The notes beneath the pieces are model-generated. The model worked only from the letters and a program-made list of their open reading frames with translations, did not search any database and was not told the origin of the DNA. From Clostridia bacterium (GTDB taxonomy: Bacteria; Bacillota; Clostridia; RGIG6154), in assembly GCA_017410375.1 (NCBI GenBank), contig JAFQQW010000051.1, forward strand, positions 102,733 through 166,732: a stretch of DNA of 64,000 nt. Direction: 5' to 3'. The position numbers and the translations under genes are program-made. Below, one piece after another: positions 1,190 to 28,423 of the stretch. The number at the start of each line of letters is the position of its first letter. Within the stretch, counting starts at the first letter, position 1.

Positions 1190-4100
1190 TCACCAACTCC
1201 AAAGAATTTTTCCAAAATTTATATCAGCATGTAATTCAGCAGGCAAAACACTAACTCCTCCCGAAACACTCCCGCCTTTAGATGTATCGAAGTCTCCTCC
1301 TACATATCCCGCTGACCCACCTGCTGATATTGACATTCCTTCTAAATCATATATAGTATCTGCAGAATTGATAACTATTGTCCCGCTAACAGACGCATTG
1401 GGTGTGCCTGCACCAACACCACCAAATACTATTATTCCTTTGTTACCATAGTCATCCCAAACGAACATAATTTGAATATTGAGTTTAATTCCAAATGCCG
1501 CAGATGCCGAAATCCCCGTTCCATATGCTTCTTCTCCAGTAACATCAACATATGTTATTGGATTATTCAGTGCATAAACATATACGTTAGCACTTTGCAG
1601 TACGGAATTTATATCAGGTATGCGTGCAAAGGAACTATCTACATCTTTATGTTTTTCTCCATAAATCATGTTATCAAGATTCCAATGGGTGTCTTTCTGT
1701 GTAAATCTACCGGTATTGGGGGTATAATAGCGTGCACGGAGATAGATGGAGTCGGATTCCGCATCGTAGTATTCACCGCAATATCTAAAGGGATTTGTGT
1801 CGTTGGTGTCTATATTTCGTTCCACACCAAAGCCATCATATTCATAGTGTTTTACACTTTCACCTGCACTATTGGTTAAGTGTACAACATCACCATGTGC
1901 ATTATGGACATAGTACTGTGAATTATTACTGATTAAGTCAAGACCATAATAATAGTTTTGTATACCATCCTTAACCAAATTCATGCCGTCCCAAATTTGG
2001 TTGGTGGTTTTTCCATTTACTGTCTTGCTATTTCTTAAACCATCCGCAGTATAAGTATATGTTGCTTGCTCGGTCCCTTTTCCTCTAAATTCTACTAAAC
2101 GGTTAAAATCGTCATACTCGTAATGTGCAACATTGGGTACTTGTTGCGGTGTCCAGAAGTCGGCAGTCAATTCACTTTCTGTAGGTGTTGTTCCGTCTTT
2201 GGATGTATAAGTTTCGGTTATTTCAGACATCAGGTTGCCATTCTCATCATAGCTATAGGAAGTTAATTCCTCTACCTCACTTGCAGTATACATCTTACTG
2301 CCTGTCAGTTGTTTGTTGTTTTTGTCGAAGGTGTTTATTACTGTAAAACTTTCTTCGCCCGTTACAGATAAAGCTGTACGGTTGCCACGGCTGTCATAGC
2401 TATAAGTCATGTCAATATCGCCGACTGTTTCTGTTTTCAGTCTGTTTACACCGTCATAGGTGTAGGCGGTGGTTACACCGTCCTCGGTTTTGGTTGCCAC
2501 ATTGCCGTCTGTAAAGTAAGTATAGCTGATATTGGAAAGCACATCTGTATCGTTAGAAGCGGTTACATTGGTTGTCCAACCGGCATTGTTATAGGTATAA
2601 TCTGTGGTTACGCCGTTGCCCAGTACAGATTTGGTTAATCTGTTATTTACATCATAGGTATAGCTTGAAATGGCATTATTGCCTTGCTTTACAGTTGTTA
2701 AGCGGTTTGCATTGTCATACACATAAGACAAGCTATAGTTTGGCATAGAGAAGGTCAAACGGTTACCGCGTTTATCATAGGTATAGTTTTTTGTAACGCC
2801 GTCTGTTACCTCTTTGGTGAGCCAACCCAAGCTATTATAGGTATAGGCAGAGCTTGTTTGTTGCGTTCCGTTTTGGGTGATGCTTGCCCCTACTCTATTA
2901 TTCATCATATCATAATTATAGGTTGCTGTCAAGTTGCCAGCCGTTTTTTGGGTTAAGCGGTTTGCGCCCTCATAGGTATAGGCGGTACTGATGCCCTTAC
3001 GGTCTGTCATGGATTTTACGGTGCCGTCTAAGTTATACACATAGGTTACGCTATCGCCCAAAGCATCGGTTACAGTAACAGGCTGATTGAGGAAGTTATA
3101 TGTATAGGTGGTGGTAGACTGTTCGCCTGTATTGCCTACCGTTTGGGTGAGCATTCTGCCGCCCTTGTCATAGGTATAGTTGACCTCGGTGCTATCGCCC
3201 TTGTTGTTTTGGCTTACCTTTGTTACGTTATTATTGGCATCATAGGTATAGTGGATATAGGAAACTTCGTTTGCTTCTCCAAAGGGGTTTGTAAGATAGC
3301 CTTCTTTAATCATATTGCCGTTTCCGTCATACCAATAGTTATGCCAAACGGTGGTTTCGCCCTCGTCATAAGCCTGAGAAACCAATTCGTTACGGGGATT
3401 GTAGGCATAATTCATAATAAAGCCGTCGGGAGCCTGTGTGGCGTACATATTGCCATAGGCATCATAGTAATTGGTGGTTGTGTTACCTAAAGCATCTTTT
3501 ACGGTGCGCGGCTGATTGACACCGTTATAGGTATAGGTTGCAACTGTTCCTTTTTCGTCGGCAACCGAAAGGACATTACCCATCTTGTCATAGGTATAGG
3601 TGGTTGTACCTGTGTCGGGTGTAGTTTGTGAAGTCATAAACCCGAGTTCGTTATACTTTTGCGTTACATCAAAATGTTGATTATTGGTTTTATAGGTTCG
3701 GGTTTTGATTTGGGTGCCGGTATGGGTGCCGTCATCCGAAGCAATGTCAAACAAGGTATAGGTATACTGTTGTTTTGCCTTTAACTCGTCATTATAGAAC
3801 TCTTTCTGCTCTAAGATTTTGCCGCCGTCGTTAAAGGTGTACTCGATTTTGGTATAGTCGCCATCGGTATTTTCAAACACTTTGTTTGTGCTTATTCTGC
3901 CACGGTTGTCATAGGTCACTTCGTCCATTTGTACCCAGGTTTCGCCATCTAATGCATAGCTTGCGGTGTACCGACCCAGTCCGTCATAGATTTGTTTTAC
4001 ACGGTTGCCGTTGGAGTCGGTGGCGATGATGATGTTGTTTTCATAATCATAGCTATAAAGACTTGTGCTGTTTAAGGTTAAATTGGTTTGAGACAGCACA

Positions 4101-6673
4101 TCACCCGAAATATTGTATGTGGTGGTATGGGTATTGCCATTGGCATCGGTTGCGCGAACGGCTCTGCCTAACATATCGTAGGTTTCGGAGGTGGTATGGT
4201 CCGAAACGGCTCTGAAGCCTGTGGTTGCTGTGTTTACAATTAAGCTATAGTCGTTTAAGTTGTTCGCTTCGGTATTTAATTCCGGATAGGTATAGGTATA
4301 GGTTGTGGTGCCTTCATCTTCATCATAAGTAACAGATGCCAATGTGCCATCCGCATTATAGGTATAGCTTTGTGTTCTTGAACGCAGGTCGGTACCGCTT
4401 ACCGTCATGGATGCAGGGGTTTTGCCGTCCGAGCTGAAAGTATAGGTTGTGGTAAGATTTACCGCTCTGTTTGATGTACCGCCATTTACGGTATGGGTTT
4501 TAAGTTGTTCGTAGGGGCCATAGGTATAGGTTTCGGTATAGCCTGCAACACGTTTACTCCATATTTTATCCAATCCTCCGGTGTATGAGGTTATTGTTGT
4601 ATAGGGAAGTCTGTTCTCCGGCACTTCAGCATCAACAGATGTTGCGTTTATTTGATACAAATCTGTTCGGGTAATTAAATTAGGATTCACTGCACCAGAC
4701 TCATATGTATAGTTCGTTTTAGTCAAAATTCCATCTTGTAAAACGCGACTTTCCGTCAAGCGTTGTTTAGAATCATAGATGTCTTTTTGTATACCATTCG
4801 GACTTTGGATTATAGTATAATGTGTATACTCTTCATCGTTTGTTATTTTTCCTTCCTGTGGATTGTTATAAGCATAGGTTGTTTCCATTTGTTTTTCGCC
4901 ATCAAACATGTAATATGTTTTGGAAACCTTCTGTTTTTCTGTTTCATGCTCGGTATAATTGAAATATACATTTGATGTATCATACTCGTATACTTTTTTA
5001 GTGTTATCTGAAAGTTCAACTTCGGTAAGTAACATCTTCCAATCTGCACGAGTAGCATTTTCTGAATATCCAAACTCTACCAAGTCCTGAACAAGCTTAT
5101 GTGTATATGTCGTTTTGTCTTGGCTTGTTTCTGTTCCGCGATACACATTTAAAGTGTAGATATTATCTGTATATAAATTATTACCCGGATCGACCATCGC
5201 ATCGTTTTCAGATATTGTTTCATATGTAACAATTATGTTTTCGTCAAATGCTCCTTGTTCTTCCGTTTGTTGATCGTAAGGAACACTTCCTACCGTGATA
5301 TTTGCCAAAAGATCTCCATTATAATTAAATCGTATAGAACGTCCATAAGTGTCTACAATATTTAACAACTTATCTCCAGAGAAATTGTATGTAATATAGT
5401 TTCCAAATCGATCTTCTATTGCTACCATTCGTTGATCATACAAATTGTAATAACGTTTTGTCCCTTCAGGGTCTGTTACCTTCGCATTATATTCGCAATA
5501 CGGAAGCTCCCGATAATATTCCGAATCAAAATTATCGGTAAATTCAACATCCCAATCATTCAAAACGTTAACCTGTCCGTTATTTGTATAGGTTGTTACT
5601 TTTTGATATGTAACCGTCCCATAATCTGCATCTTGACGATATGAAATGTAAAGTTCATCGTCTTTTTCGGTGCTGAAATGAGCTGTTCCAACATAAAATC
5701 TATCGTTTATCGGCCCATCTAAATATTTGTTTTCCCATTCGGCAAAAGGAAGTTGTATACGCCAACCATTACCTATTGATGTGCCCATTGCAGGATCTGT
5801 AACATTCATTAACTCTACTTTTGTTTCATAAGAAACTTCGGCACAAACTGCACCCAAATTTGTATTTCGCACTAATTTAACTGCGTTCGCATCTGATGAT
5901 TGAATGTCCTCATACATATATAAAATACTGCTTGAATCTAATGATGGATTCGATTCAGGCAATATAGTCATGCCGGAAACATTATTTTGCCCATACTCAG
6001 AATAGTTCATTAAAACAGATATTCTATGATTTTCATCTTCTGCCAACAACATTTCTGTTTCGCTATTAAATACAACATATATTGGTTGCGTAGTATTATT
6101 TTCCAGATAATACGTGTAAATATATTGGTAGTATTTTTCATTTACTACTTCGTTATTTGTTTTATAATTAATAGGATAACGACTTGAGTTGTTTGTGTAA
6201 TCAAAATCAGATCCCATTTCATTTGAAATAGTTTGTAAGGCACTGTTATACACGCGGTTAACAGAAACGTCCAAACCAGCTTTGCCCGGCAAATATAAAT
6301 CCGTTGATGAATAGTGCAATGCACCAGTAGCACTGTTTATATAGCTGTTGCCCGATTTATCAAAAATTGCTCCCTGGTTTCTTCTATCGCCTAAAATACT
6401 ATTCAAATATTGTTGTTCTTCATAAACAACCGGGTCAAAATCTGCAGTTTCGGCACTTGTTGCTTCAACACTATATGTTGCTCCGATTGTCTCGACATCC
6501 ACCCCAGCAACTTGCATCGCAAAAGAAACGTTGTTCTCCATAACCAACAAAGGATGTTCATCACTATATACTGTTTGCACTACACTTTTTTGTGAAACCG
6601 ATTCAATTGCAAATGCTGGTGCAATTTGAAAAACCATTAATGCTGAAAGCACCCACGCTGTAAATTTTTTCAT
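1190..6673 (-). CDS. RHS/YD-repeat polymorphic toxin (WapA-like). It has a Sec signal peptide, an RHS shell, a degenerate DPxGL-type motif (NPITYVDVTGE) and a ~115-aa glycine-rich C-terminal toxin domain
   Basis: Signal peptide MKKFTAWVLSALMVFQIAPAFA; many YD repeats; RHS core end RARYYTPNTGRF...NVYVYALNNPITYVDVTGE; RBS GGAGG 9 nt upstream. Confidence 0.9.
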   Translation of the reverse strand: MKKFTAWVLSALMVFQIAPAFAIESVSQKSVVQTVYSDEHPLLVMENNVSFAMQVAGVDVETIGATYSVEATSAETADFDPVVYEEQQYLNSILGDRRNQGAIFDKSGNSYINSATGALHYSSTDLYLPGKAGLDVSVNRVYNSALQTISNEMGSDFDYTNNSSRYPINYKTNNEVVNEKYYQYIYTYYLENNTTQPIYVVFNSETEMLLAEDENHRISVLMNYSEYGQNNVSGMTILPESNPSLDSSSILYMYEDIQSSDANAVKLVRNTNLGAVCAEVSYETKVELMNVTDPAMGTSIGNGWRIQLPFAEWENKYLDGPINDRFYVGTAHFSTEKDDELYISYRQDADYGTVTYQKVTTYTNNGQVNVLNDWDVEFTDNFDSEYYRELPYCEYNAKVTDPEGTKRYYNLYDQRMVAIEDRFGNYITYNFSGDKLLNIVDTYGRSIRFNYNGDLLANITVGSVPYDQQTEEQGAFDENIIVTYETISENDAMVDPGNNLYTDNIYTLNVYRGTETSQDKTTYTHKLVQDLVEFGYSENATRADWKMLLTEVELSDNTKKVYEYDTSNVYFNYTEHETEKQKVSKTYYMFDGEKQMETTYAYNNPQEGKITNDEEYTHYTIIQSPNGIQKDIYDSKQRLTESRVLQDGILTKTNYTYESGAVNPNLITRTDLYQINATSVDAEVPENRLPYTTITSYTGGLDKIWSKRVAGYTETYTYGPYEQLKTHTVNGGTSNRAVNLTTTYTFSSDGKTPASMTVSGTDLRSRTQSYTYNADGTLASVTYDEDEGTTTYTYTYPELNTEANNLNDYSLIVNTATTGFRAVSDHTTSETYDMLGRAVRATDANGNTHTTTYNISGDVLSQTNLTLNSTSLYSYDYENNIIIATDSNGNRVKQIYDGLGRYTASYALDGETWVQMDEVTYDNRGRISTNKVFENTDGDYTKIEYTFNDGGKILEQKEFYNDELKAKQQYTYTLFDIASDDGTHTGTQIKTRTYKTNNQHFDVTQKYNELGFMTSQTTPDTGTTTYTYDKMGNVLSVADEKGTVATYTYNGVNQPRTVKDALGNTTTNYYDAYGNMYATQAPDGFIMNYAYNPRNELVSQAYDEGETTVWHNYWYDGNGNMIKEGYLTNPFGEANEVSYIHYTYDANNNVTKVSQNNKGDSTEVNYTYDKGGRMLTQTVGNTGEQSTTTYTYNFLNQPVTVTDALGDSVTYVYNLDGTVKSMTDRKGISTAYTYEGANRLTQKTAGNLTATYNYDMMNNRVGASITQNGTQQTSSAYTYNSLGWLTKEVTDGVTKNYTYDKRGNRLTFSMPNYSLSYVYDNANRLTTVKQGNNAISSYTYDVNNRLTKSVLGNGVTTDYTYNNAGWTTNVTASNDTDVLSNISYTYFTDGNVATKTEDGVTTAYTYDGVNRLKTETVGDIDMTYSYDSRGNRTALSVTGEESFTVINTFDKNNKQLTGSKMYTASEVEELTSYSYDENGNLMSEITETYTSKDGTTPTESELTADFWTPQQVPNVAHYEYDDFNRLVEFRGKGTEQATYTYTADGLRNSKTVNGKTTNQIWDGMNLVKDGIQNYYYGLDLISNNSQYYVHNAHGDVVHLTNSAGESVKHYEYDGFGVERNIDTNDTNPFRYCGEYYDAESDSIYLRARYYTPNTGRFTQKDTHWNLDNMIYGEKHKDVDSSFARIPDINSVLQSANVYVYALNNPITYVDVTGEEAYGTGISASAAFGIKLNIQIMFVWDDYGNKGIIVFGGVGAGTPNASVSGTIVINSADTIYDLEGMSISAGGSAGYVGGDFDTSKGGSVSGGVSVLPAELHADINFGKILWSW

Positions 6674-6686
6674 TTATAATCCCTCC

Positions 6687-9600
6687 TCACTCTTGATAAC
6701 ATTTCAAATTAATATGACCTTCTACTTTTGAAGTGAATTCTAGCACATGAACCAGACCACTCCAATAGCTTTCGTCTAAAACTTCCTCTGTTGTGTACTC
6801 AATTTTAAGTATACCTTCGCTGTTCTCAACAACCTCAGTTGCCCCATGATTATTCGGAATTACATGCTGAATAATGTTGTCCACTTCATCATCTGTAAGC
6901 TCTAACATATGCGCATCATATTCAATAACCATAACTGTTTTACCTTCTGCTTTTTCTTTTGCCGTCACCGAAACATATACTTTTTCACCCGGTTTTACAT
7001 ATTTAATTAATCTGCCGTCCTCAACAACTGAAACGTCTTGAAGCACCTGTAAATAATATGGTGTTGCAGTTCGTCCTGCAAATGTTTTAATATAAAAATG
7101 TGTTACGTCGGTATCTGTTTCATCTGTATAATATCCTCCGTTTACAGGCTCTACTTTCTCCCACTCTCCTTGATGCTTTTTATATACATAAAATGTTGCA
7201 TCCTTGTTTTCAGAAGACATTGTGATATTATACTTTGTAGCAAATCGACTTACAGGAAATTTATAATAATCTCTATCGGTTTCGTAGTCAAAGTAAAGTG
7301 TTTTTTCACCCTGATTATATGTATGTTCGGCACTTGAAAAATCTGAAAAATCGATATAGTATTTTCTGGTATACCCATTGTTACCTTCCAGCAAAATATA
7401 CCCTTCACGATTTTGAGTTTCACTATTCAACGGCAAAACTGCTTCTAATGTAGTTGCTGCACTCGCTATACATGTATCATTTCCATTATATACATCATGC
7501 AATTCAATTCTCGCACCACCCTCAACCGGATCTTGCGCTGTCACTTTTACTTTAATACCTTCTTCGGTTCGCACAATCGAAGGGCCAAAGGTAAAATACG
7601 GCAAATTCATGTCTTCGTATTTTGCAAGTGTTGCATCATACCCTTCTTGCGTATCTGGCAGAATAATATCATAATCTGTAATTGTTAAATAATCAAGACG
7701 TGCATATCCATACCCATAAAATGTAAGTGTCGCTTGGCCTTTTTTCAAAGCAACAGATTCCGCTTCATCATAATTATAAAAAGCATATTCATTTGATGTC
7801 AAAAAATTACGCTTCATGCCAAAGCCATATAAATTATAGAGGTTGTCTGTTCCACCTATAATCCTATCATAAGTAATATCAAAATTATCATTACTATTTT
7901 TTCCTGTGATTGGGATTTCATCCCCCTCGCCTTGCTTAACAGTAATGCCAAATACTCTCTCAAACGCCTTTTGACTATCTTGAACATTTGGCGAACTTGC
8001 GGCACGGGCAGAAATTTCGTATTGCCCATCCTTAGGAATTTGCACAGTTGCAGTCATACGCACAACTTGTTTTCTATCGTTTACGCGTTTGTCTTTTGCT
8101 TGCATAATCGGATTTCCATAATTTGAATTATACACGCCAAAACCGCTTGTACTTTCAAACCAAACATCCTCGCCAAAAAACTCGGCATCTGTCGGATGAA
8201 CTGTAAAATTATTTCTCGGTGTAAGTAAAATCGTTGTTTTGGATGATGGAACACTAAAAAGGTCTTCTGCCCGTTTCCCGCTACGATTGAATGCTGTAAA
8301 TATCATTGAGTTGTACGAACTGTCATATAATCCTTCTGCCACAAAATCGGTTACATTACCATCGTAATAACCAAAAACTTCTAAAGTGCCGTTGCTTCCG
8401 ATACCATAAACTGCATATCCGTCTATGTGTGTTCCTTCAACTTCGAAAACAACTTCCTCATTTTCGACTTGATAACCGGATTTAGAATAATAGGGTGACG
8501 GATAATTCAGCACTGCCCCAACAGATGCTTCATACATCGCCTCATTCATATTTTGTGACATGGGTTGAGATGCTAAAATTATAAAATCCATAATCGCACC
8601 GGGATATGCGTAAATGTTTAATGTATTAAATCCCTGCTCCAAATAAATGGGTTCAGCATCAGTATACATATGCGGTTTATGTTCAGCAGTAACATAGCTT
8701 CTTCTTGCTCCAAACAAATATCTCGGTTCATCGTTTATCATAAGAGCATTATAGTCGTCATAATCCGATAATTGATCCGATTCCGTAACCGCCTTATCAC
8801 CCTGCACATACTTTTCGACACCATTTTCATAATAAGAAATCATAAATGTACCGAATTTGGGATCATTACTCTCCTGCTTCTGAGATAACGCTCTGGCACT
8901 TACATAATAATTCCCAGATACAGGAACAAAAATCTCTGTTGTATGCTTTAGAGGTTCTCCGTAGTTATTATTTAAAACAGTATATCCGCCCGATTCTTTT
9001 GAGAACGAATATGCAGAATACATATAGTCAATTCCCGCTGACGGAATATTATCTGTAAACGCGCTCCCGGTCACAAATTCTGTTTCAGCATTCAATACAA
9101 TCGCATAATTATCATTTCCGGGATTATATGTAATTGTCTCTTGTAAAAAATTCCCGAATGCATCCCATGCCGTTATATCAATTGTTACAGGTTCAAGACG
9201 ACATAATGAACTTAAATTCAAGCTATGCTCTTTTGTCGAATAAGAATTTGTTCCATAAGTATCTGTAAATGAAATTTCATAAGCAACCGGCTTGTTAGGA
9301 CCTGCTTCGTATTCTAACCAAGAATTTCCTTCTTGTACAGATATAGCAGGTTCTTCTAAAAAAGCAAATGTAGTATTTTCAAATACACCATAAGTCTGTT
9401 GATATTCTGTTTTTGTCTGCACATTAACAAGCGGTTGCTCAGAAATAACCAAAAAATCTAATCGAGAATAACTATTCGCATACAAATTAACCGTTGCTTG
9501 TCCTTCTTCCAGATAAACAGGTACTGCATCAAAGTAATTGTATGACTGTAAATCAGTAACAAATTCCCGCATAGAACCAAACAAATATCTGTTTTGTCCG

Positions 9601-10121
9601 TTGATGTCACAGCTATCAAAATCATACATATTCTCATCAGACCACGGATTGCTACCTGTTACAAAACTTTCAACTGAATTCTGCGTGAACGAAACCTGCA
9701 TAGTTCTGTTCATGTGGTAGTTGGTCTGCGTTACAGGTGTTGTCGTTGTTTTCATTCTGGCGCCTACATAATACATACCTGACTCAGGAATAACAATATC
9801 ACAATTTGTATAACGTGCGCTCGAGCCTGTCGTTACCAAAAGATAAGAACCAAAATTCCCGTTAAACGCGCCACCCGCATTTGCGTCATATGTGAAATTT
9901 TCATCATTAAAGTCTTTACCTGTTAGCACAATAGCATTTGTTACAGTTTGGATGTCTCCATCTGTTGATACTGTGCTTTTTTCTACCGATTCGACACTAA
10001 TTATCTCTGCATTTTCTTCTTCAAGTATCAAATCGTTGCTTAAATCTGATTCTGCAATGGATAATGTTGGAATGCTTAATAGCAACCCAATGCTTAACCA
10101 CAATGCAATCATTTTTCTCAT
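6687..10121 (-). CDS. Large secreted protein (1144 aa from ATG 10121) with three ~180-aa CBM-like beta-sandwich repeats, co-transcribed upstream of the RHS toxin
   Basis: RBS AAAGGAG 9 nt before MRKMIALWLSIGLLLSIPTLSIA; three internal repeats ending ...SRLDFLVISEQP / ...IMDFIILASQP / ...ARLDYLTITDYD; stop 13 nt before RHS start. Confidence 0.8.
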   Translation of the reverse strand: MRKMIALWLSIGLLLSIPTLSIAESDLSNDLILEEENAEIISVESVEKSTVSTDGDIQTVTNAIVLTGKDFNDENFTYDANAGGAFNGNFGSYLLVTTGSSARYTNCDIVIPESGMYYVGARMKTTTTPVTQTNYHMNRTMQVSFTQNSVESFVTGSNPWSDENMYDFDSCDINGQNRYLFGSMREFVTDLQSYNYFDAVPVYLEEGQATVNLYANSYSRLDFLVISEQPLVNVQTKTEYQQTYGVFENTTFAFLEEPAISVQEGNSWLEYEAGPNKPVAYEISFTDTYGTNSYSTKEHSLNLSSLCRLEPVTIDITAWDAFGNFLQETITYNPGNDNYAIVLNAETEFVTGSAFTDNIPSAGIDYMYSAYSFSKESGGYTVLNNNYGEPLKHTTEIFVPVSGNYYVSARALSQKQESNDPKFGTFMISYYENGVEKYVQGDKAVTESDQLSDYDDYNALMINDEPRYLFGARRSYVTAEHKPHMYTDAEPIYLEQGFNTLNIYAYPGAIMDFIILASQPMSQNMNEAMYEASVGAVLNYPSPYYSKSGYQVENEEVVFEVEGTHIDGYAVYGIGSNGTLEVFGYYDGNVTDFVAEGLYDSSYNSMIFTAFNRSGKRAEDLFSVPSSKTTILLTPRNNFTVHPTDAEFFGEDVWFESTSGFGVYNSNYGNPIMQAKDKRVNDRKQVVRMTATVQIPKDGQYEISARAASSPNVQDSQKAFERVFGITVKQGEGDEIPITGKNSNDNFDITYDRIIGGTDNLYNLYGFGMKRNFLTSNEYAFYNYDEAESVALKKGQATLTFYGYGYARLDYLTITDYDIILPDTQEGYDATLAKYEDMNLPYFTFGPSIVRTEEGIKVKVTAQDPVEGGARIELHDVYNGNDTCIASAATTLEAVLPLNSETQNREGYILLEGNNGYTRKYYIDFSDFSSAEHTYNQGEKTLYFDYETDRDYYKFPVSRFATKYNITMSSENKDATFYVYKKHQGEWEKVEPVNGGYYTDETDTDVTHFYIKTFAGRTATPYYLQVLQDVSVVEDGRLIKYVKPGEKVYVSVTAKEKAEGKTVMVIEYDAHMLELTDDEVDNIIQHVIPNNHGATEVVENSEGILKIEYTTEEVLDESYWSGLVHVLEFTSKVEGHINLKCYQE

Positions 10122-10188
10122 ACCTATCACTCCTTTTAAATTTTTGGATAGTTGCGGGATAGAACTATCCACTATGAGAATACAACAT

Positions 10189-10197
10189 ATTATATCA
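10189..10197 (-). promoter_or_regulatory. Candidate extended -10 element (TGATATAAT) for the 1144aa-RHS-immunity operon
   Basis: Reverse complement of attatatca; ~70 nt upstream of the start codon; no good -35, but the TGn extension is present. Confidence 0.3.
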
Positions 10198-10216
10198 AAA
10201 ATCAACATTTACGACT

Positions 10217-22261: not shown

Positions 22262-23380
22262 ATGTCAAATGCAAAAAACATACCGGCAGACATTCTTGTA
22301 AATCAAAAGCAAGAAAAATATTCGGAAGGCATAAGAAAATTTCAAGGATGCCCCACTATTGCTGTAACAAAAGGCGGTCGTCTGTTTGCAGGTTGGTACA
22401 GTGGTGGGATTTGTGAGCCTCATATTGAAAACTACAACTTAATTGTATACAGCGACGATAAAGGAAAAACATGGTCAGAGCCTATTGTGATAATACCGAG
22501 TAATGAAGAGAAAATGTTTCAGGCACTTGATATTCAGTTGTGGATTTCTCCTGACGGAAATCTTCATGTGTTCTGGGTACAGAATGATGTTACGAAAGCT
22601 AACGAAAAGTATTGTACAGATGAATATAAAGGAAAACGAGGTTTTACAACAGATGACGGACATCTTTGTGTAGGTGGTTACTATTTTGATGATAAAGTTC
22701 ATGCTTGTTGGAACATGGTATGTGAAAACCCTGACGATAATGAAATCAAATTTTCAAAGCCAAGATGTATAGGAACAGGTTTTTTAAGATGCAAACCTTT
22801 AATTACCCGAAACAAAGAATGGGTATTATTTAACTATGATCAAACTAACGAAAATTATGGTTATTCGGTATCTTTAGATAACGGCAAAACCTTTGAAAGA
22901 AGATATGGTGCGAAAAAAATTGAAACACCTTTTGATGAAACTATGGCGTATCAAAAGGATGACGGCGAAATTAGAATGTTTGCAAGAAGTACTGTAGGCG
23001 AAATCGCAGAAAGCAGCACATATGATTTAATCAACTGGACAAAAGCTAAAAAAACCGGAATAATTAGTCCTAATACAAGATTTTACATTCAAAAATTGAA
23101 ATCAGGGCGAATCTTGCTTGTAAACAATGACCACAGCAAAATAAGAACCAACATGAGTATTTATTTATCCGAAGACGACGGAAAAACATTTAAATACAAA
23201 TATATGCTGGATGATGTGGGTGAAACAAGCTATCCCGATGTCGATGTTTTATACGACGAAATTTTTCTTGTTTATGACAGAGGCAGATGCAAAGAAAAAG
23301 AAATTTTGTTTACTAAATTTACAGAAAACGACATAATAAATAATAATCCTATTTCTGTATCAATCATCAGCAAGCCATAA
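22262..23380 (+). CDS. BNR/Asp-box repeat protein, sialidase-like (GH33 superfamily) glycoside hydrolase without a signal peptide
   Basis: Asp-box motifs SDDKGKTWSEP, SLDNGKTF and SEDDGKTF; RBS CAGGGAG. Confidence 0.7.
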   Translation: MSNAKNIPADILVNQKQEKYSEGIRKFQGCPTIAVTKGGRLFAGWYSGGICEPHIENYNLIVYSDDKGKTWSEPIVIIPSNEEKMFQALDIQLWISPDGNLHVFWVQNDVTKANEKYCTDEYKGKRGFTTDDGHLCVGGYYFDDKVHACWNMVCENPDDNEIKFSKPRCIGTGFLRCKPLITRNKEWVLFNYDQTNENYGYSVSLDNGKTFERRYGAKKIETPFDETMAYQKDDGEIRMFARSTVGEIAESSTYDLINWTKAKKTGIISPNTRFYIQKLKSGRILLVNNDHSKIRTNMSIYLSEDDGKTFKYKYMLDDVGETSYPDVDVLYDEIFLVYDRGRCKEKEILFTKFTENDIINNNPISVSIISKP

Positions 23381-23431
23381 TCAATAATTTCAAATACAAA
23401 AATTCTGCACAAAAGAAGGAGAATGTATATC

Positions 23432-26400
23432 ATGACAAAAAGAGGACTAACCTTATTGTTGGCATTGCTTATGTTTATACCTTTAGTAGGAACACCGGTT
23501 TTTGCTGAAGAAGACGGAATTATAGTTACGCCAACTACTGACAATTGTATTGAATTTTCAGGTTGGACCGGTTCATCAAGTTTGAAGAGATATGACGGAA
23601 AAACCAGTTCACCTATTGGTGGAGGTACAGCAAAATTTGAAGTCCCTTCAACACTCAACGGATGGACAACACTTTATTACTGGATCCCTAAATATGCAAG
23701 CGGGTATACTGAGAACATTAATTGCACAATAGGTCTTGAAATTATCACAGCAAATGGTCAGATTCGTAAATTTGCCAAAAAAATAGTAAGTGGCAATGGC
23801 GGTGAATGGCTTGAAATTGCAACTGCTTATTTTTCATCTGTCGAAACCGAATACATAAACGTAACAGGTAATACTTCGGGTCAAAACAGACTTACAGATG
23901 TTAAGTTTGTAAATGGTGCAAAGGCCGCATATCACATTCTACCTGATCTTTTTTCAGAAACAGGCAGTTGGTCCTGCTCCTCATATCCTAAAAACGGTGC
24001 CTATCAGGACAAAGTTATGGTTTCTACCTATGCAAATGAACACCCTGCAATAATAATTGGCGAAAATCTTATTCCCGGAAATTACTATGTCTATGTTCAT
24101 TCCGTCGACTGTGATTATTCCACCGGCGACAGAGCGTTTTATCTTGAAATAAACGGACAAGCAGTTTATAAGCTTAACGAAACAGCATCAAAATCAAGAT
24201 ATTTCGGTACCCACCTTGTTGGCACTGACATTGAAAACAGTCAACCAAATTCTGCCGAAGCTATCCCATATTTTGATTGGGAACAAATGACAGCACCTTC
24301 AAAAACAATAACTGTAGGCGAAGATGGGAAACTTGAACTTAAAGTTCATGCTCTGTCAGGATTTGCAAGATTTGACACAATTGTTATAACGCAGGACGAA
24401 AATTTTGACAAAACCCTTACGGGTGAAATGGGAATTTATTGTGCAGAACCTTTCCCCGCAATTACCCCATACAGTGACCGTATTCAATTCCCTAAAAAAT
24501 ATATGGGAAACTTAACTTCCGTAGATTTATGTGCAACTCTTTCAAACAGCCATACAACGATATCTTTCAGAAAAGGTATAACTGAAAGTGGCGAAACTGT
24601 TGTTCAAAGAAAAGTTGTAACAGATGATGTCGTTACCATTCCTTATGAAAACGGATTCGGTGTGATGTCACTTTTTGCAACAAAAGCAACAGGCTACAAT
24701 TATAGCGGATACTACGGTCAATTTCAAACCGAATATCCCTCCGAACAATCGGGAATTTTGCGTATAAACGATCAGAATGTATTCCGTTCAGGTATACCAG
24801 AATGGATTATTCCTGAAACTCTTGAACAGATAAACGAAAACACCGTTAAAATGACAGCTGACGGAACATACGCTTCGCTTGTTATGGTGTGGACCCTTGA
24901 AGAAAATGATTTAGAGCCTAAAGTTACGGTTACTGCGACCGCAAAACAAGACGGTGAACTTTCGTTTGGTTTCTTCAACGAGGTTCAGGAAATTGCAAGA
25001 GACAAAGTGGGCTATGTTCTTAACCCTTACAGATGGCAAGAAAGCAGATTACCTGACCCCGGAGTTACAATAACAGAAACTAACTCAACCACCGACCACA
25101 CTCAAATGACCTATAAAATGAATGAAAAAGGTCAGGAAATTTCACTCGGTGTTGCGGTTGACAGATCATCAATAGATTTAACAGTTCCTGTTGAAGGCTC
25201 AGAGTATGAAACAGGTAGATGGCCGCACGATACAGCTGAATACACCTTTACAAAAGAGTGGAACGAAGATAAGCTCCCTGACGGAACATATAAAAGCACT
25301 TACCTTGATTATAAAGAAGAAAATGCAGACTTTGTAATGAACACCACAGGTGAAAACGGCGGAGTTCTTCCTGCAATTTTTGCTCCTAAAATGGCAAGTA
25401 TTGACTCTTCTTTCAAAACGGGAGATACATACACTTTCTCTTACAGACCCTTGTCAATCGTATCAACATTAGGTGAAAACAGAGGATGGTACGATATGTA
25501 CAAACACGTAGCACAGGACTTAAGAGGTGTTTACGACTACCGTGACAATTACTATTCATCTATGACAGATGCCGCGTTCAACATTCTGAATTTCTTAAAG
25601 GACGATGAGGCAAGCGGTTGGGACTCTAATATGATTGGTCACTATAATATCGAAGACTCAAACTGGGTAACAAACTCTAATGGTCTTTCGTATCTTCAGA
25701 ATTACCTTCTTACCGAAGACTATGACCTTTTAATGAGAAGAACTCTCCCGTCAATGGGTTCAATGCTCACAAGAAGCAATTCACATATTCATAGCAGATT
25801 TTCAATAAGAAGTGAGTCAGAAGGACCTATCAACAAAGAACTTGAGTACACTCCTATCGGCATGGGTAACGCTGCATTTGAGGGTGCATATCTTATGAGC
25901 AGAGGCCAGATGCCTGTTTACAGAAATATCGCAAAGAGCAGATTCATGAATACCAATGTTGAATCTGCAGGAATGAATCTTAAAAACACCACCGACTACT
26001 ATTGGTACGAGCGTGCGAACGGCTCTGAAACCTTCCCTCTTGCAATTGCCAATGCAGACGAATATCTAATCAAGCGTTCATTTCTTTCAAGTGATAAAAC
26101 TCCCGACCTTGAAAGTTTCATTAACATAAGCTACACTCCACAGTTTCAGGCACAGCTTGATGCGTATGAAATTACAGGTGATACAAAATATCTTGAAGGT
26201 GCAGTTGAAGGTGCAAGAAGATTTTTGCCTTCACTCAGAATCACCGATATTCCCGAAAGCAAAGATGTTTTATGGATTGAAAACACAGAGCAATTAGTGG
26301 CTGAAGACAAGCAAAGACGCAGCAGTGCCTGGTCTATAGCAGACAGAAGATACCGCAGAGGTGCTCTTATGGAAGCAACCGGAAGCACAATATCCGAAAA

Positions 26401-28423
26401 CGGTTCTGTCTACAACGAATACATCATCAAAGGTTATGATGAAAACTACATGAATGTCCGTGATATGACACAACCATATCCTGCATGGGTAACTTCAAGA
26501 ACCGGTCTTGGTGTTGAGCAATTTTCGACCTGTTTAGAAGGTGCAAACATTACAATGTCAACTTGGGCAGGCGATGTTTTAAGACTTGGTTATCTTTCTG
26601 GCGATGAGCTTATGATGGACCTTGCGCGTTCCTCGTTGGTAGGTAGATTTGCAAATTATCCAGGATATTACATCAGAAACTACACAACCATTTACGGTCT
26701 TGAAAATTATCCTACAGAGGCATTCGACAGCACATACCTTTATTTTCACCACGCACCTGTATTACTCTCAGCAATTCACGACTATCTTTTTTCAAATGCT
26801 TATGTAAAATCCGACGGAAAGGTAAACTTTCCCAATACGAGAATTCAGGGCTATGCATGGTTTAACAACAGAATGTATGGTCATGAGCCCGGCGTAATTT
26901 ATGATGAAAAGGAAATGTGGCCCTGGCTTAAAGAAGGCACAATTGAAGTTTCATCAAAGCAGATTGACTGGATTGCAGGAAGAAACGAAGGCAGAGCGGC
27001 ATTTGTTCTGACCAATGCAGGTGATAACACAGAAAATATAACAGTTGCATTTAACGCAGACCTCGGTATAAAAAACGGAGCAGTTGCAACCATTTACGAC
27101 AAAACCGGCAACGCGGCAACTACTGTCGTAAAAGATAACAAGCTCACTGTTGCAATTCCTGAAAAGGGAATTGTGACAGTTGCAGTATCCGGTTCCGGCA
27201 TCCACATGCCCGAATACGCCAAAATAGTATTCAACGAAACAGCGCAGAACGAATTGGGCACCTCTGCTCTCGGTCTTATGTACGAAGGAAGAGATTATGA
27301 ACAAAGTTACTCCATACAGCCAAACAATAGCTATACATTCACTTATGACATCGATAAAGGCTACGATGTTAAAGCGTATGCACTTGCACTTGCACCCGAC
27401 AACTATATGGGTTACATCTTTGTGGGCGGACGTTCAGCAGAACAATATGAATTCATAAACGAACAAGGCGAAAAGGCAGTCGGTGGCGGCGACGGGAACA
27501 AAGGCATTATAAAAACCACTCTCAAATGGCGTTTTGAGGGAGAAAGTGATATTAAAACAGAAATTGACGAAAACTTTCCCTACGAATTTTTCATTCCGGT
27601 TACTGACAGAAACAAAAAAATCGTATTTAATGTTGAAACCGAATACCAAGACGGTATTAAAACGCTTGACAAAGAATACACCATCGCTCCACAGGAAATT
27701 ACAGTTTATGAACCCCAAAAATATACGTTTGAGCCGATATCTATGTCTATTGTAAGCAATCTCGGTGGTGTAAGTTCGCCACTTACAACCGGAAAAAGCA
27801 AATATTGTATTCAAAATCAAAGCATCAGCTTTTTCCCGTTCAATGCTACTGCACAAAATGCACTTAAAGACTGTTACTTAAGCGGTTACCTGAAAGTAAA
27901 AGACTTAACCAGCACTACCGATGTTATAGAAAAAGGATATGTACTTTTTGACAATGTTCCCATCGTAAACAGTGTAATAAACACCTCTGCGAGCAACAGA
28001 CTTGATTTTTCCGTAAACGACATCATCTACACAGACATACCGGAAAACACCCATGAATACAAAAACGGCACATATATAGGGGCACTTCAGGGAACAGTTG
28101 TGGGTCTATCAGAACACACAGATGCCTATGAATGGGGAAATCTCTACATAACAAACGCAGATTCTAAAAAAGGCTTGCAGTTTACCAGAAACGGAAACAC
28201 CTATACCCTTTCAAATGATGGTGCTTGCTGTCTGTTTGTTGCGGTCGCTACATACAGTGACCAAAACCAAATGCTTGATGCACGGATCGAACAGGTAATC
28301 GTGAGTATTAACAACAGTAAATCATACACCATTTCCAACAACCAGAAACTCTTTGTATGGGAATGCGATGTAAACAAAGGTACTTCACTATGCCCCGTTT
28401 TTTCAAGCAAATCCGCACAATAA
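23432..28423 (+). CDS. Giant secreted protein (1663 aa from ATG 23432) with an N-terminal CBM-like domain and the uncharacterized ~850-aa core shared with the 1798-aa protein
   Basis: RBS AAGGAGA; signal peptide MTKRGLTLLLALLMFIPLVGTPVFA; FARFDTIVITQD motif; long collinear similarity to 14665-20061. Confidence 0.85.
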   Translation: MTKRGLTLLLALLMFIPLVGTPVFAEEDGIIVTPTTDNCIEFSGWTGSSSLKRYDGKTSSPIGGGTAKFEVPSTLNGWTTLYYWIPKYASGYTENINCTIGLEIITANGQIRKFAKKIVSGNGGEWLEIATAYFSSVETEYINVTGNTSGQNRLTDVKFVNGAKAAYHILPDLFSETGSWSCSSYPKNGAYQDKVMVSTYANEHPAIIIGENLIPGNYYVYVHSVDCDYSTGDRAFYLEINGQAVYKLNETASKSRYFGTHLVGTDIENSQPNSAEAIPYFDWEQMTAPSKTITVGEDGKLELKVHALSGFARFDTIVITQDENFDKTLTGEMGIYCAEPFPAITPYSDRIQFPKKYMGNLTSVDLCATLSNSHTTISFRKGITESGETVVQRKVVTDDVVTIPYENGFGVMSLFATKATGYNYSGYYGQFQTEYPSEQSGILRINDQNVFRSGIPEWIIPETLEQINENTVKMTADGTYASLVMVWTLEENDLEPKVTVTATAKQDGELSFGFFNEVQEIARDKVGYVLNPYRWQESRLPDPGVTITETNSTTDHTQMTYKMNEKGQEISLGVAVDRSSIDLTVPVEGSEYETGRWPHDTAEYTFTKEWNEDKLPDGTYKSTYLDYKEENADFVMNTTGENGGVLPAIFAPKMASIDSSFKTGDTYTFSYRPLSIVSTLGENRGWYDMYKHVAQDLRGVYDYRDNYYSSMTDAAFNILNFLKDDEASGWDSNMIGHYNIEDSNWVTNSNGLSYLQNYLLTEDYDLLMRRTLPSMGSMLTRSNSHIHSRFSIRSESEGPINKELEYTPIGMGNAAFEGAYLMSRGQMPVYRNIAKSRFMNTNVESAGMNLKNTTDYYWYERANGSETFPLAIANADEYLIKRSFLSSDKTPDLESFINISYTPQFQAQLDAYEITGDTKYLEGAVEGARRFLPSLRITDIPESKDVLWIENTEQLVAEDKQRRSSAWSIADRRYRRGALMEATGSTISENGSVYNEYIIKGYDENYMNVRDMTQPYPAWVTSRTGLGVEQFSTCLEGANITMSTWAGDVLRLGYLSGDELMMDLARSSLVGRFANYPGYYIRNYTTIYGLENYPTEAFDSTYLYFHHAPVLLSAIHDYLFSNAYVKSDGKVNFPNTRIQGYAWFNNRMYGHEPGVIYDEKEMWPWLKEGTIEVSSKQIDWIAGRNEGRAAFVLTNAGDNTENITVAFNADLGIKNGAVATIYDKTGNAATTVVKDNKLTVAIPEKGIVTVAVSGSGIHMPEYAKIVFNETAQNELGTSALGLMYEGRDYEQSYSIQPNNSYTFTYDIDKGYDVKAYALALAPDNYMGYIFVGGRSAEQYEFINEQGEKAVGGGDGNKGIIKTTLKWRFEGESDIKTEIDENFPYEFFIPVTDRNKKIVFNVETEYQDGIKTLDKEYTIAPQEITVYEPQKYTFEPISMSIVSNLGGVSSPLTTGKSKYCIQNQSISFFPFNATAQNALKDCYLSGYLKVKDLTSTTDVIEKGYVLFDNVPIVNSVINTSASNRLDFSVNDIIYTDIPENTHEYKNGTYIGALQGTVVGLSEHTDAYEWGNLYITNADSKKGLQFTRNGNTYTLSNDGACCLFVAVATYSDQNQMLDARIEQVIVSINNSKSYTISNNQKLFVWECDVNKGTSLCPVFSSKSAQ

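Follow-up and report, generated by a model that had tools for sequence, protein, structure and literature searches.

We have analysed a 64,000-nucleotide stretch of DNA from a Clostridia bacterium (assembly GCA_017410375.1, contig JAFQQW010000051.1, positions 102,733 to 166,732), here called the window and numbered from its first letter, and in particular the C-terminal domain of an RHS/YD-repeat polymorphic toxin encoded in it. The RHS gene lies at 1190–6673 on the minus strand as a single open reading frame (ORF) of 1827 residues, MBQ2967952.1, to which the database protein P0017, from a metagenome-assembled genome (MAG) labelled 'Clostridia bacterium', is identical. Direct reading of the sequence gives a Sec-type signal peptide at the N-terminus (MKKFTAWVLSALMVFQIAPAFA, followed by IE; 6608–6673, minus). 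RHS repeats are recognised by PF05593 in 12 stretches (E = 4.7e-34) and by TIGR01643 in nine, and an RHS repeat-associated core (TIGR03696, E = 1e-13) covers residues 1612–1713 (1535–1840, minus), ending ...NNPITYVDVTG. Since the region matched by PF05593 and TIGR03696 stops at G1713, the G of VDVTG, the residues that follow, 1714–1827 (1193–1534, minus; isoelectric point (pI) 4.1, 18.6% glycine), are in the position of a post-core polymorphic tip. The sequence supports their assignment as the polymorphic C-terminal toxin tip of the RHS protein, a domain that we infer to be toxic. An earlier note, made from a first reading of the same letters, had drawn attention to an RHS C-terminal domain at 1193–1540, which on the minus strand codes for the final 116 residues of the RHS protein starting just past VDVTG; the residues that it quoted match the tail of the ORF exactly and do follow the end of the TIGR03696 core.

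At the end of that core sits VDVTGE (residues 1709–1714; 1532–1549, minus), which differs from the canonical autocleavage motif DPxG[LWF] in being without the P and the L/W/F, though it retains the D and the G. RHS proteins self-cleave after DPxG[LWF] (bioRxiv 10.1101/2024.02.26.582050), and relatives of the window protein have DPSGEW, DPTGEW or DPSGLW at this position. Cleavage of the window protein would probably fall between VDVTG and E.

A single-sequence, word-indexed search with the tip found one relative. A two-sequence profile found 15, all of them short fragments or RHS C-termini and one from an Oscillospiraceae MAG, and an exhaustive HMMER search with the 16-sequence profile through 1.84 billion cluster representatives (50% identity clusters) gave 1713 proteins at E ≤ 1e-3, with 568 at ≤ 1e-10. 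The 16-sequence alignment, used for a search of loci, recovered 16 more metagenomic loci of the family. Of 154 proteins retrieved, 120 have the domain starting directly after a DxxG motif in the RHS core, for which YxYxxNNPxxxxDPxG is typical, and among the 150 best representatives nearly all carry it immediately behind NNPxxxxDPxG. Pfam domains in 13 long members are all of RHS type, with none on the tip, and the complete full-length members all begin with a signal peptide (5/5) and are free of PAAR, VgrG and LXG. Among named genomes, members were found in Oscillospiraceae, Candidatus Limiplasma, Ruminococcaceae and Faecalibacterium prausnitzii. Scanning the tip against Pfam and NCBIfam, NCBIfam toxin models included, gave no family at E ≤ 1, and at the same threshold none of the Gly-zipper, bacteriocin, Ntox and Tox Pfam families matches the window domain or its 15 relatives; the profile search against Ntox/Tox and bacteriocin families proposed in the earlier note has thus come back empty. 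Only scattered single-member matches to porin-like composition were seen when all 16 members were scanned with Pfam. By these searches, the tip represents a large family dedicated to RHS C-termini and undescribed in Pfam (2025) and NCBIfam (2026). The scaffold that delivers it is an ordinary, known RHS/WapA-type polymorphic toxin.

The earlier note had likened the tip to glycine-zipper toxins, class II bacteriocins and microcins, pointing to its composition and to spaced GxxxG motifs. The tip would then be an alpha-helical pore-former, as Tse5-CT or TelE, and it does share with such molecules a small size, an abundance of Gly, Ala and Ser and, probably, the membrane as its aim. The richness in Gly, Ser, Ala, Val and Ile is borne out (G 18.6, S 11.5, I 10.6, A 9.7 and V 8.0%), small-xxx-small spacing is enriched over composition-preserving shuffles (p = 0.015), and a membrane-protein immunity gene, described below, parallels the Tse5/Tsi5 pair. 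The GxxxG motifs themselves, however, number four against 3.6 ± 1.6 in the shuffles (p = 0.5), with one GxxxGxxxG against 0.6 expected, and are thus at the level of chance. Small-x-small-x-small spacing is more strongly enriched (p = 0.003), and this spacing of small residues at i, i+2 and i+4 is the period-2 signature of beta strands. The highest mean Kyte–Doolittle hydropathy over 19 residues is 1.35, under the threshold of 1.6 for a transmembrane (TM) helix, and the hydrophobic moment is larger for a beta (1.02) than for an alpha periodicity (0.57); the TM and amphipathic-helix prediction suggested in the earlier note yields no signal for either. Ten acidic residues are scattered along the domain. 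Helical, hydrophobic GxxxG helices and a bacteriocin leader, as found in the known toxins, are missing from this 114-residue part of an 1827-residue protein, AlphaFold2 (AF2) assigns it just four helical residues at a confidence of 94, and the 16 members are all without a match to the Gly-zipper and bacteriocin families of Pfam. The tip is glycine-rich yet is not a glycine zipper; the helical model is largely refuted computationally and we regard it as highly improbable.

With the 16-sequence alignment AF2 gave an all-beta model of the tip with a predicted local distance difference test score (pLDDT) of 78.5, and with a 101-sequence alignment a model of pLDDT 94.1 and predicted template modelling score (pTM) 0.82 that has the same secondary-structure elements. 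These are eight strands and one 4-residue helix (63–66) between strands 4 and 5. The tip is confidently predicted to be an all-beta, eight-stranded barrel resembling that of the Vap proteins of Rhodococcus (Prescottella) equi, the closest known being VapA, VapB, VapD and VapG (PF05526, R_equi_Vir; PDB 4cv7, 7b1z, 4csb and 5aeo). In VapB the sole helix lies between strands 4 and 5, and the strand order of the Vaps is 41238567 (PMC4089522); the predicted tip has the same topology, an eight-stranded antiparallel double-Greek-key barrel of order 41238567 with its one short helix between strands 4 and 5. Fold comparison of the 101-sequence model placed R. equi VapB (4cv7) first with a score of 11.7 (99 of 111 residues, 2.5 Å), followed by R. 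equi VapG (5aeo) at 11.3 (97 of 110, 2.3 Å) and the Brucella COG5400 protein (5uc0) at 8.7 (92 of 159, 2.9 Å), the next-best matches being PagL, OmpA-like and designed barrels and avidins at ≤ 6.0 over about 70–79 residues. The 16-sequence model ranks its matches in the same order, and the top five in Foldseek, an independent method, include VapB, VapG and VapD, with probabilities of 0.91–1.00.

The composition of the tip family is also close to that of the Vaps, which are likewise secreted, of about 110 residues, acidic and 15–20% glycine: the family has a median pI of 4.3 and 17% Gly, and the Vap cores a pI of 4.4–4.9 and 15–20% Gly. By analogy, the glycines of the tip look like those of the Vap barrel, described as 'Gly kinks' and as a 'bald' surface (PMC4118825), and not like helix-packing zippers. 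Hydropathy averaged over the family alternates with period 2, leaving a hydrophobic inner face and an outer face rich in G/S/T, which argues for a soluble barrel with a packed core. A membrane-embedded monomeric barrel like OmpA or OmpX was considered and rejected, the outward strand positions being G/S/T/N/D and the topology that of the Vaps and not next-neighbour. The conserved C-terminal Trp of the Vap homologues was also looked for; the window protein ends WSW, but the position is not conserved in its family, and neither is the Vap C-terminal run of Gly that precedes the Trp.

Downstream of the RHS gene, with its ATG 5 nucleotides (nt) past the RHS stop, lies a candidate immunity gene on the same strand (733–1185, minus) encoding a protein of 150 residues, MBQ2967951.1. 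Some 80 N-terminal residues form a soluble part and are followed by two TM helices with Kyte–Doolittle peaks of 2.1 and 2.85. From the hydropathy, helix 1 spans residues 81–102 (880–945, minus) and is preceded by KFKFKT, and helix 2 spans residues 112–132 (790–852, minus) and is followed by KLFFGKEEK; under the positive-inside rule these Lys-rich flanks suggest an N-in/C-in topology. No Pfam or NCBIfam family was found for MBQ2967951.1, and both genes downstream of the RHS gene are annotated as hypothetical. In an Oscillospiraceae MAG, the orphan tip P0002 is followed by a gene whose product aligns with MBQ2967951.1 at 31% identity, and the latter's design of a soluble N-terminal part plus two TM helices recurs among the partners in three other loci.

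The same arrangement is found throughout the loci surveyed, a small sample of the family comprising every fetched locus with a complete toxin ORF (21 by automated scan and one, L010, by hand). In all 22 of them, 19 being distinct once near-identical downstream genes are removed, a gene for a small protein comes next, and TM segments are predicted in its product by a crude hydropathy window. By the same crude metric, 44% of the non-overlapping ORFs of the window have at least one TM segment and 10% at least two. The partner genes encode 100–330 residues and start between −26 and +213 nt from the toxin stop in 21 loci and about 370 nt from it in L010. Most of the partners have two or three TM segments, in at least five unrelated architectures: a soluble N-terminal part and then two TM helices; three or four TM helices within about 105 residues; a TM helix, a basic loop and a second TM helix; a TM hairpin and then a soluble C-terminal part; and one TM helix followed by a soluble part. 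A constant linkage to membrane proteins, with a partner family that changes, would be expected of a toxin that acts at the membrane.

This pairing in 22 of 22 loci, together with a closest fold of VapA type, makes the membrane the likeliest site of action of the tip. The idea of a membrane-active pore-former in the earlier note therefore survives as regards the membrane, and fails as regards the glycine-zipper or bacteriocin kind. We favour, at slightly better than an even chance, the view that the tip of this WapA-like RHS toxin of a gut or rumen Clostridia bacterium acts at the cytoplasmic membrane, most probably by permeabilising it. The RHS protein would be exported by Sec, by analogy with the WapA-type toxins of Firmicutes, with the tip enclosed in the RHS shell; once freed at the junction of VDVTG and E, the tip would fold into a Vap-like barrel and attack the cytoplasmic membrane of neighbouring Gram-positive cells, binding and permeabilising it as VapA does and so collapsing the proton gradient and the membrane potential. 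The producer would be shielded by the two-TM protein encoded 5 nt downstream, which is the putative immunity protein. The model for the action of the tip would be that of R. equi VapA on liposomes and phagosomes; liposomes to which VapA binds lose their carboxyfluorescein within minutes, and proton gradients collapse (PMC10100859), an activity that fits the membrane-protein immunity genes of the tip family. The glycine 'bald' surface of VapD binds octyl-glucoside and has been proposed to dock onto ordered lipid (PMC4118825), and there is a precedent for the pairing in the Rhs pore-former Tse5, which is neutralised by the two-TM protein Tsi5 (PMC9637101).

Several observations weigh against this view. 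The Foldseek TM-scores of the Vap matches reach only 0.43–0.55. PF05526 does not match the tip at E ≤ 1 (as positive controls it finds VapA at E = 6e-76 and VapD at 7e-61), and when the 150-member family was aligned by hhalign with 6 Vaps and later with 30, the latter including homologues from Klugiella, Hymenobacter, Xenorhabdus and Methylocella, probabilities stayed below 1% in local, global and low-mact modes, at 0.2–0.5% with the 30. A sequence search of the PDB with the family profile returned noise only (E ≥ 0.4). Homology between the tip and the Vaps is by these comparisons neither shown nor excluded; the tip is predicted to have a Vap-like fold and yet stands outside the Vap family as now defined, and, sequence homology being undetectable, it is solely through the predicted fold that a function is carried over from the Vaps. 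VapB, to which the tip is structurally closest, has only weak membrane activity (PMC10100859), and there is no settled mechanism for the permeabilisation of membranes by Vaps. On the side of the partners, the TM calls were made with no dedicated predictor, and these proteins expose very little extracellularly, which obscures the site of neutralisation. The cleavage motif of the window protein is VDVTGE and not DPxGL. Lastly, the family conserves a set of polar residues (D29, N33, D65, S76, D/E83, E/D102 and H104) that a non-specific disruptor of membranes does not need.

In the numbering used here for the tip, residue 1 is T1712, and conservation was taken over 150 diverse members. D29 is conserved in 100%, N33 in 97%, G74 in 97%, S76 in 87%, D/E83 in 96%, E/D102 in 97% and H104 in 94%, with D65 also within 87–100%; further signature positions are G81, G89, G95 and P100. 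The most conserved block is the ADTIYDLE(G) motif (positions 60–67, A60-D-T-I-Y-D65-L66-E-G68; 1340–1363, minus), to which both AF2 models assign their one short helix, the link from strand 4 to strand 5. A second conserved segment, G74-G-S76-A-G78, D83, P100, E102 and H104 (1229–1315, minus), contains a polar cluster: S76, D/E83, E/D102 and H104 are all on the non-hydrophobic, outward-facing phase of strands 5, 6 and 8. Their clustering in space would follow from the Vap strand order 41238567 (PMC4089522). The conserved polar residues could be catalytic, or else make up a site for specific binding. The statement in the earlier note that no catalytic residues are apparent is fair for the single sequence, but it is unsafe across the 150 members because Ser, His and acidic residues are 87–100% conserved.

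One possibility raised by this cluster is that the tip is a barrel-borne hydrolase with an exterior Ser–His–acid site made of S76 in G-G-S-A-G, H104, and E102 and/or D83. Its substrate might be a membrane lipid or a lipid-linked precursor of the cell envelope, attacked from an active site on the outer wall of the barrel in the manner of the outer-membrane barrels PagL and PagP, and the immunity protein in the membrane would protect by covering the substrate or by binding the enzyme there. The full Ser/His/acid/acid set is present in 121 of the 150 members (at position 76 a further 7% have Thr), the local sequence GGSAG fits GxSxG, and the four outward-facing residues fall near the same end of the barrel on strands that are neighbours in the order 41238567. 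However, G78 of the presumed GxSxG is conserved in 56%, the motif is in a beta-hairpin and not at a nucleophile elbow, and about 5% of the members have Gly at position 76 and yet keep H104. The match to PagL is a generic one between eight-stranded barrels, PagL having a different, next-neighbour topology, and no hydrolase family in Pfam or NCBIfam matches by sequence. The immunity proteins of type VI secretion system (T6SS) lipases of the Tle type are soluble or lipoprotein binders and are not known to be multi-TM proteins, which also counts against a hydrolase. On this balance we think a hydrolase unlikely.

The same residues could instead be a binding site through which the tip, like an avidin or lactococcin 972, docks on one defined component of the membrane, for instance a transporter, an enzyme or lipid II, which it blocks with no general permeabilisation; the immunity protein would then mask the target or sequester the toxin. 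Conserved polar residues do suggest specific recognition, avidin-like features and a cavity atop the barrel led those who solved the Vap structures to propose that the fold serves in binding (PMC4089522, PMC8329714), and the downstream gene encodes a membrane protein at all 22 loci. Five or more unrelated partner architectures nevertheless fit protection of the bilayer or capture of the toxin better than the masking of one receptor, no sequence or fold match was found to lactococcin 972 or other known target-binding bacteriocins, and no candidate target is known. Such a binder seems to us a good deal less probable than an even chance would allow, and we would call it quite unlikely.

It could also be argued that the tip is not a toxin and serves as a structural plug, an adhesin or some other non-antagonistic cargo, next to a membrane-protein gene that has nothing to do with it; the non-canonical cleavage motif would agree with this. 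Against it stand the post-core position, the polymorphic replacement of the tip in arrays and the orphan cassettes of a tip plus a small gene, which are hallmarks of toxin–immunity modules and of which tip-plus-immunity examples and arrays occur in other genomes (loci L002, L010 and L011). The membrane-protein gene is moreover tightly linked although its family changes among loci. We consider a non-toxic role very improbable and return to a toxin that acts at the membrane.

Comparison with known systems sets this toxin apart in several respects. The Vaps show no detectable sequence homology to the tip and are without the family motifs DDxGN, ADTIYDLEG, GGSxG and PxExH; they stand alone, secreted or at the surface, have a disordered N-terminal region, act on host phagosomes and are without an immunity gene, whereas the tip is carried at the C-terminus of a clostridial RHS shell, as its cargo, and is accompanied by a candidate immunity partner. 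The Brucella abortus COG5400 periplasmic barrel (5uc0) is different again, with 159 residues, no sequence match and no part in a toxin.

The WapA tips that have been characterised in Bacillus subtilis work as tRNases in the cytoplasm, and the immunity proteins that neutralise them are soluble. Unlike them, the window tip has a predicted Vap-like barrel and a candidate immunity protein that is embedded in the membrane. In other respects there is a resemblance to WapA-type toxins of B. subtilis and Streptococcus suis, extending to the signal peptide, the YD/RHS repeats, the polymorphic tip and the downstream immunity gene (PMC12704120, PMC8321402), and orphan fragments lie downstream. Tse5 (RhsP1) and Tsi5 of Pseudomonas aeruginosa are similar in combining an Rhs shell with a small C-terminal toxin that does not look enzymatic; the Tse5 tip depolarises target membranes, and Tsi5 sits in the membrane as an integral protein, having two TM regions (PMC9637101, PMC10684867). 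Tse5-CT is, however, predicted to be helical, with TM and amphipathic helices, whereas the window tip is predicted to be all-beta with no stretch of TM grade, and Tse5 is a PAAR-like protein delivered by a T6SS in a Gram-negative organism, whereas the window protein has a Sec signal peptide and comes from a Clostridia genome.

A search of the literature found no paper linking Vap with Rhs and none that prints the signature motif of the family; the systematic polymorphic-toxin discovery preprint 10.1101/2021.10.19.465003 was searched by keyword only, its PT1–PT9 sequences not being set against the tip family. As far as we have found, the tip family appears to be new and its predicted fold apparently unreported in polymorphic toxins. 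No toxin-like context was found for Vap homologues outside R. equi, the Xenorhabdus gene having no adjacent immunity-like gene, and this result is uninformative. That gene (L029, 4001–4447, Xenorhabdus cabanillasii) encodes a free-standing PF05526 Vap homologue and adjoins flagellar or type III secretion system-type export genes (FliO/P, Bac_export) and a gene for a TraT/Gly-zipper-like lipoprotein. A metagenomic Vap homologue of 265 residues lies upstream of large unannotated genes.

Some members of the tip family have an extra C-terminal tail past the barrel (L010 3788–4540, L011 3578–4489, L012 3089–4540, P0008 and P0012). The tail ends in a shared run of Gly (…GGGxGxGRSF, …GGGGRSF, …GGSSGSF, …RGGGRSNRAMIF), a motif that the window protein is without, and it may be a sorting or processing signal in this subset of the family. 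At L010 5478–6749 and L011 4988–6629, past the pair of Vap-like tip and immunity gene, there are fragments of RHS-core ends with different tips, accompanied by small genes; these are typical orphan toxin–immunity cassette arrays, belonging to Ca. Limiplasma and a Ruminococcaceae genome.

In the window itself, downstream of the immunity gene, there is a degraded orphan RHS core fragment with no toxin tip, MBQ2967950.1 (93–678, minus), which is about 93% identical in DNA to window positions ~2960–3470 within the main RHS gene and is frameshifted near its end by the loss of 1 nt. A terminator-like hairpin follows it at about 44–80. The fragment has the look of a scar left by recombination when an RHS copy was displaced. 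On the other side, 14 nt upstream of the RHS gene and on the same strand, there is an ORF of 1173 residues (6687–10208, minus) with no Pfam match, in which a segment resembling a signal peptide begins at an internal Met (MRKMIALWLSIGLLLSIPTLSIA) and a unit of ~280 residues is repeated about three times; its product may be expressed together with the RHS toxin and serve it as a surface or accessory protein. Farther away, an ORF of 1798 residues (14665–20061, minus) contains Cu_amine_oxidN1, malectin-like and Golvesin_C domains and a weak GH127 match, and a BNR-repeat (sialidase-like) protein (22262–23380, plus) matches Tli3, an immunity family of the T6SS, below threshold; these two are probably carbohydrate-utilisation genes unrelated to the toxin. 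Two other ORFs, of 1666 residues (23423–28423, plus) and 768 residues (11387–13693, minus), have no Pfam match at E ≤ 1e-3.

With 1713 representatives of 50% identity clusters the tip family is very large and yet is without a Pfam or NCBIfam model, and through it the rare Vap fold, as predicted, enters the polymorphic toxins. The mode of action of the Vaps has been called elusive since the structures of 2014. If the link to the Vaps holds, it would give a testable function to thousands of toxin genes of gut, rumen and environmental bacteria, and a simple toxin–immunity assay for membrane damage by a soluble, acidic, glycine-rich barrel, with a bearing on R. equi pathogenesis. Should the Ser/His/acid cluster prove catalytic, the tip would be a new enzyme scaffold for envelope-targeting toxins. 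A broader idea, which we put forward tentatively and hold to be possible though doubtful, is that the Vap barrel is an ancient, widespread antibacterial module that attacks membranes, the long-enigmatic R. equi Vaps being free-standing relatives of this interbacterial weapon, whether descended from it or convergent with it. Were this true, there would be a new, non-helical class of membrane-permeabilising effector built on a small beta-barrel, research on the Vaps would gain a genetically tractable toxin–immunity system, and thousands of Sec-exported RHS toxins would deliver a Vap barrel between bacteria, matched by immunity proteins embedded in the membrane.

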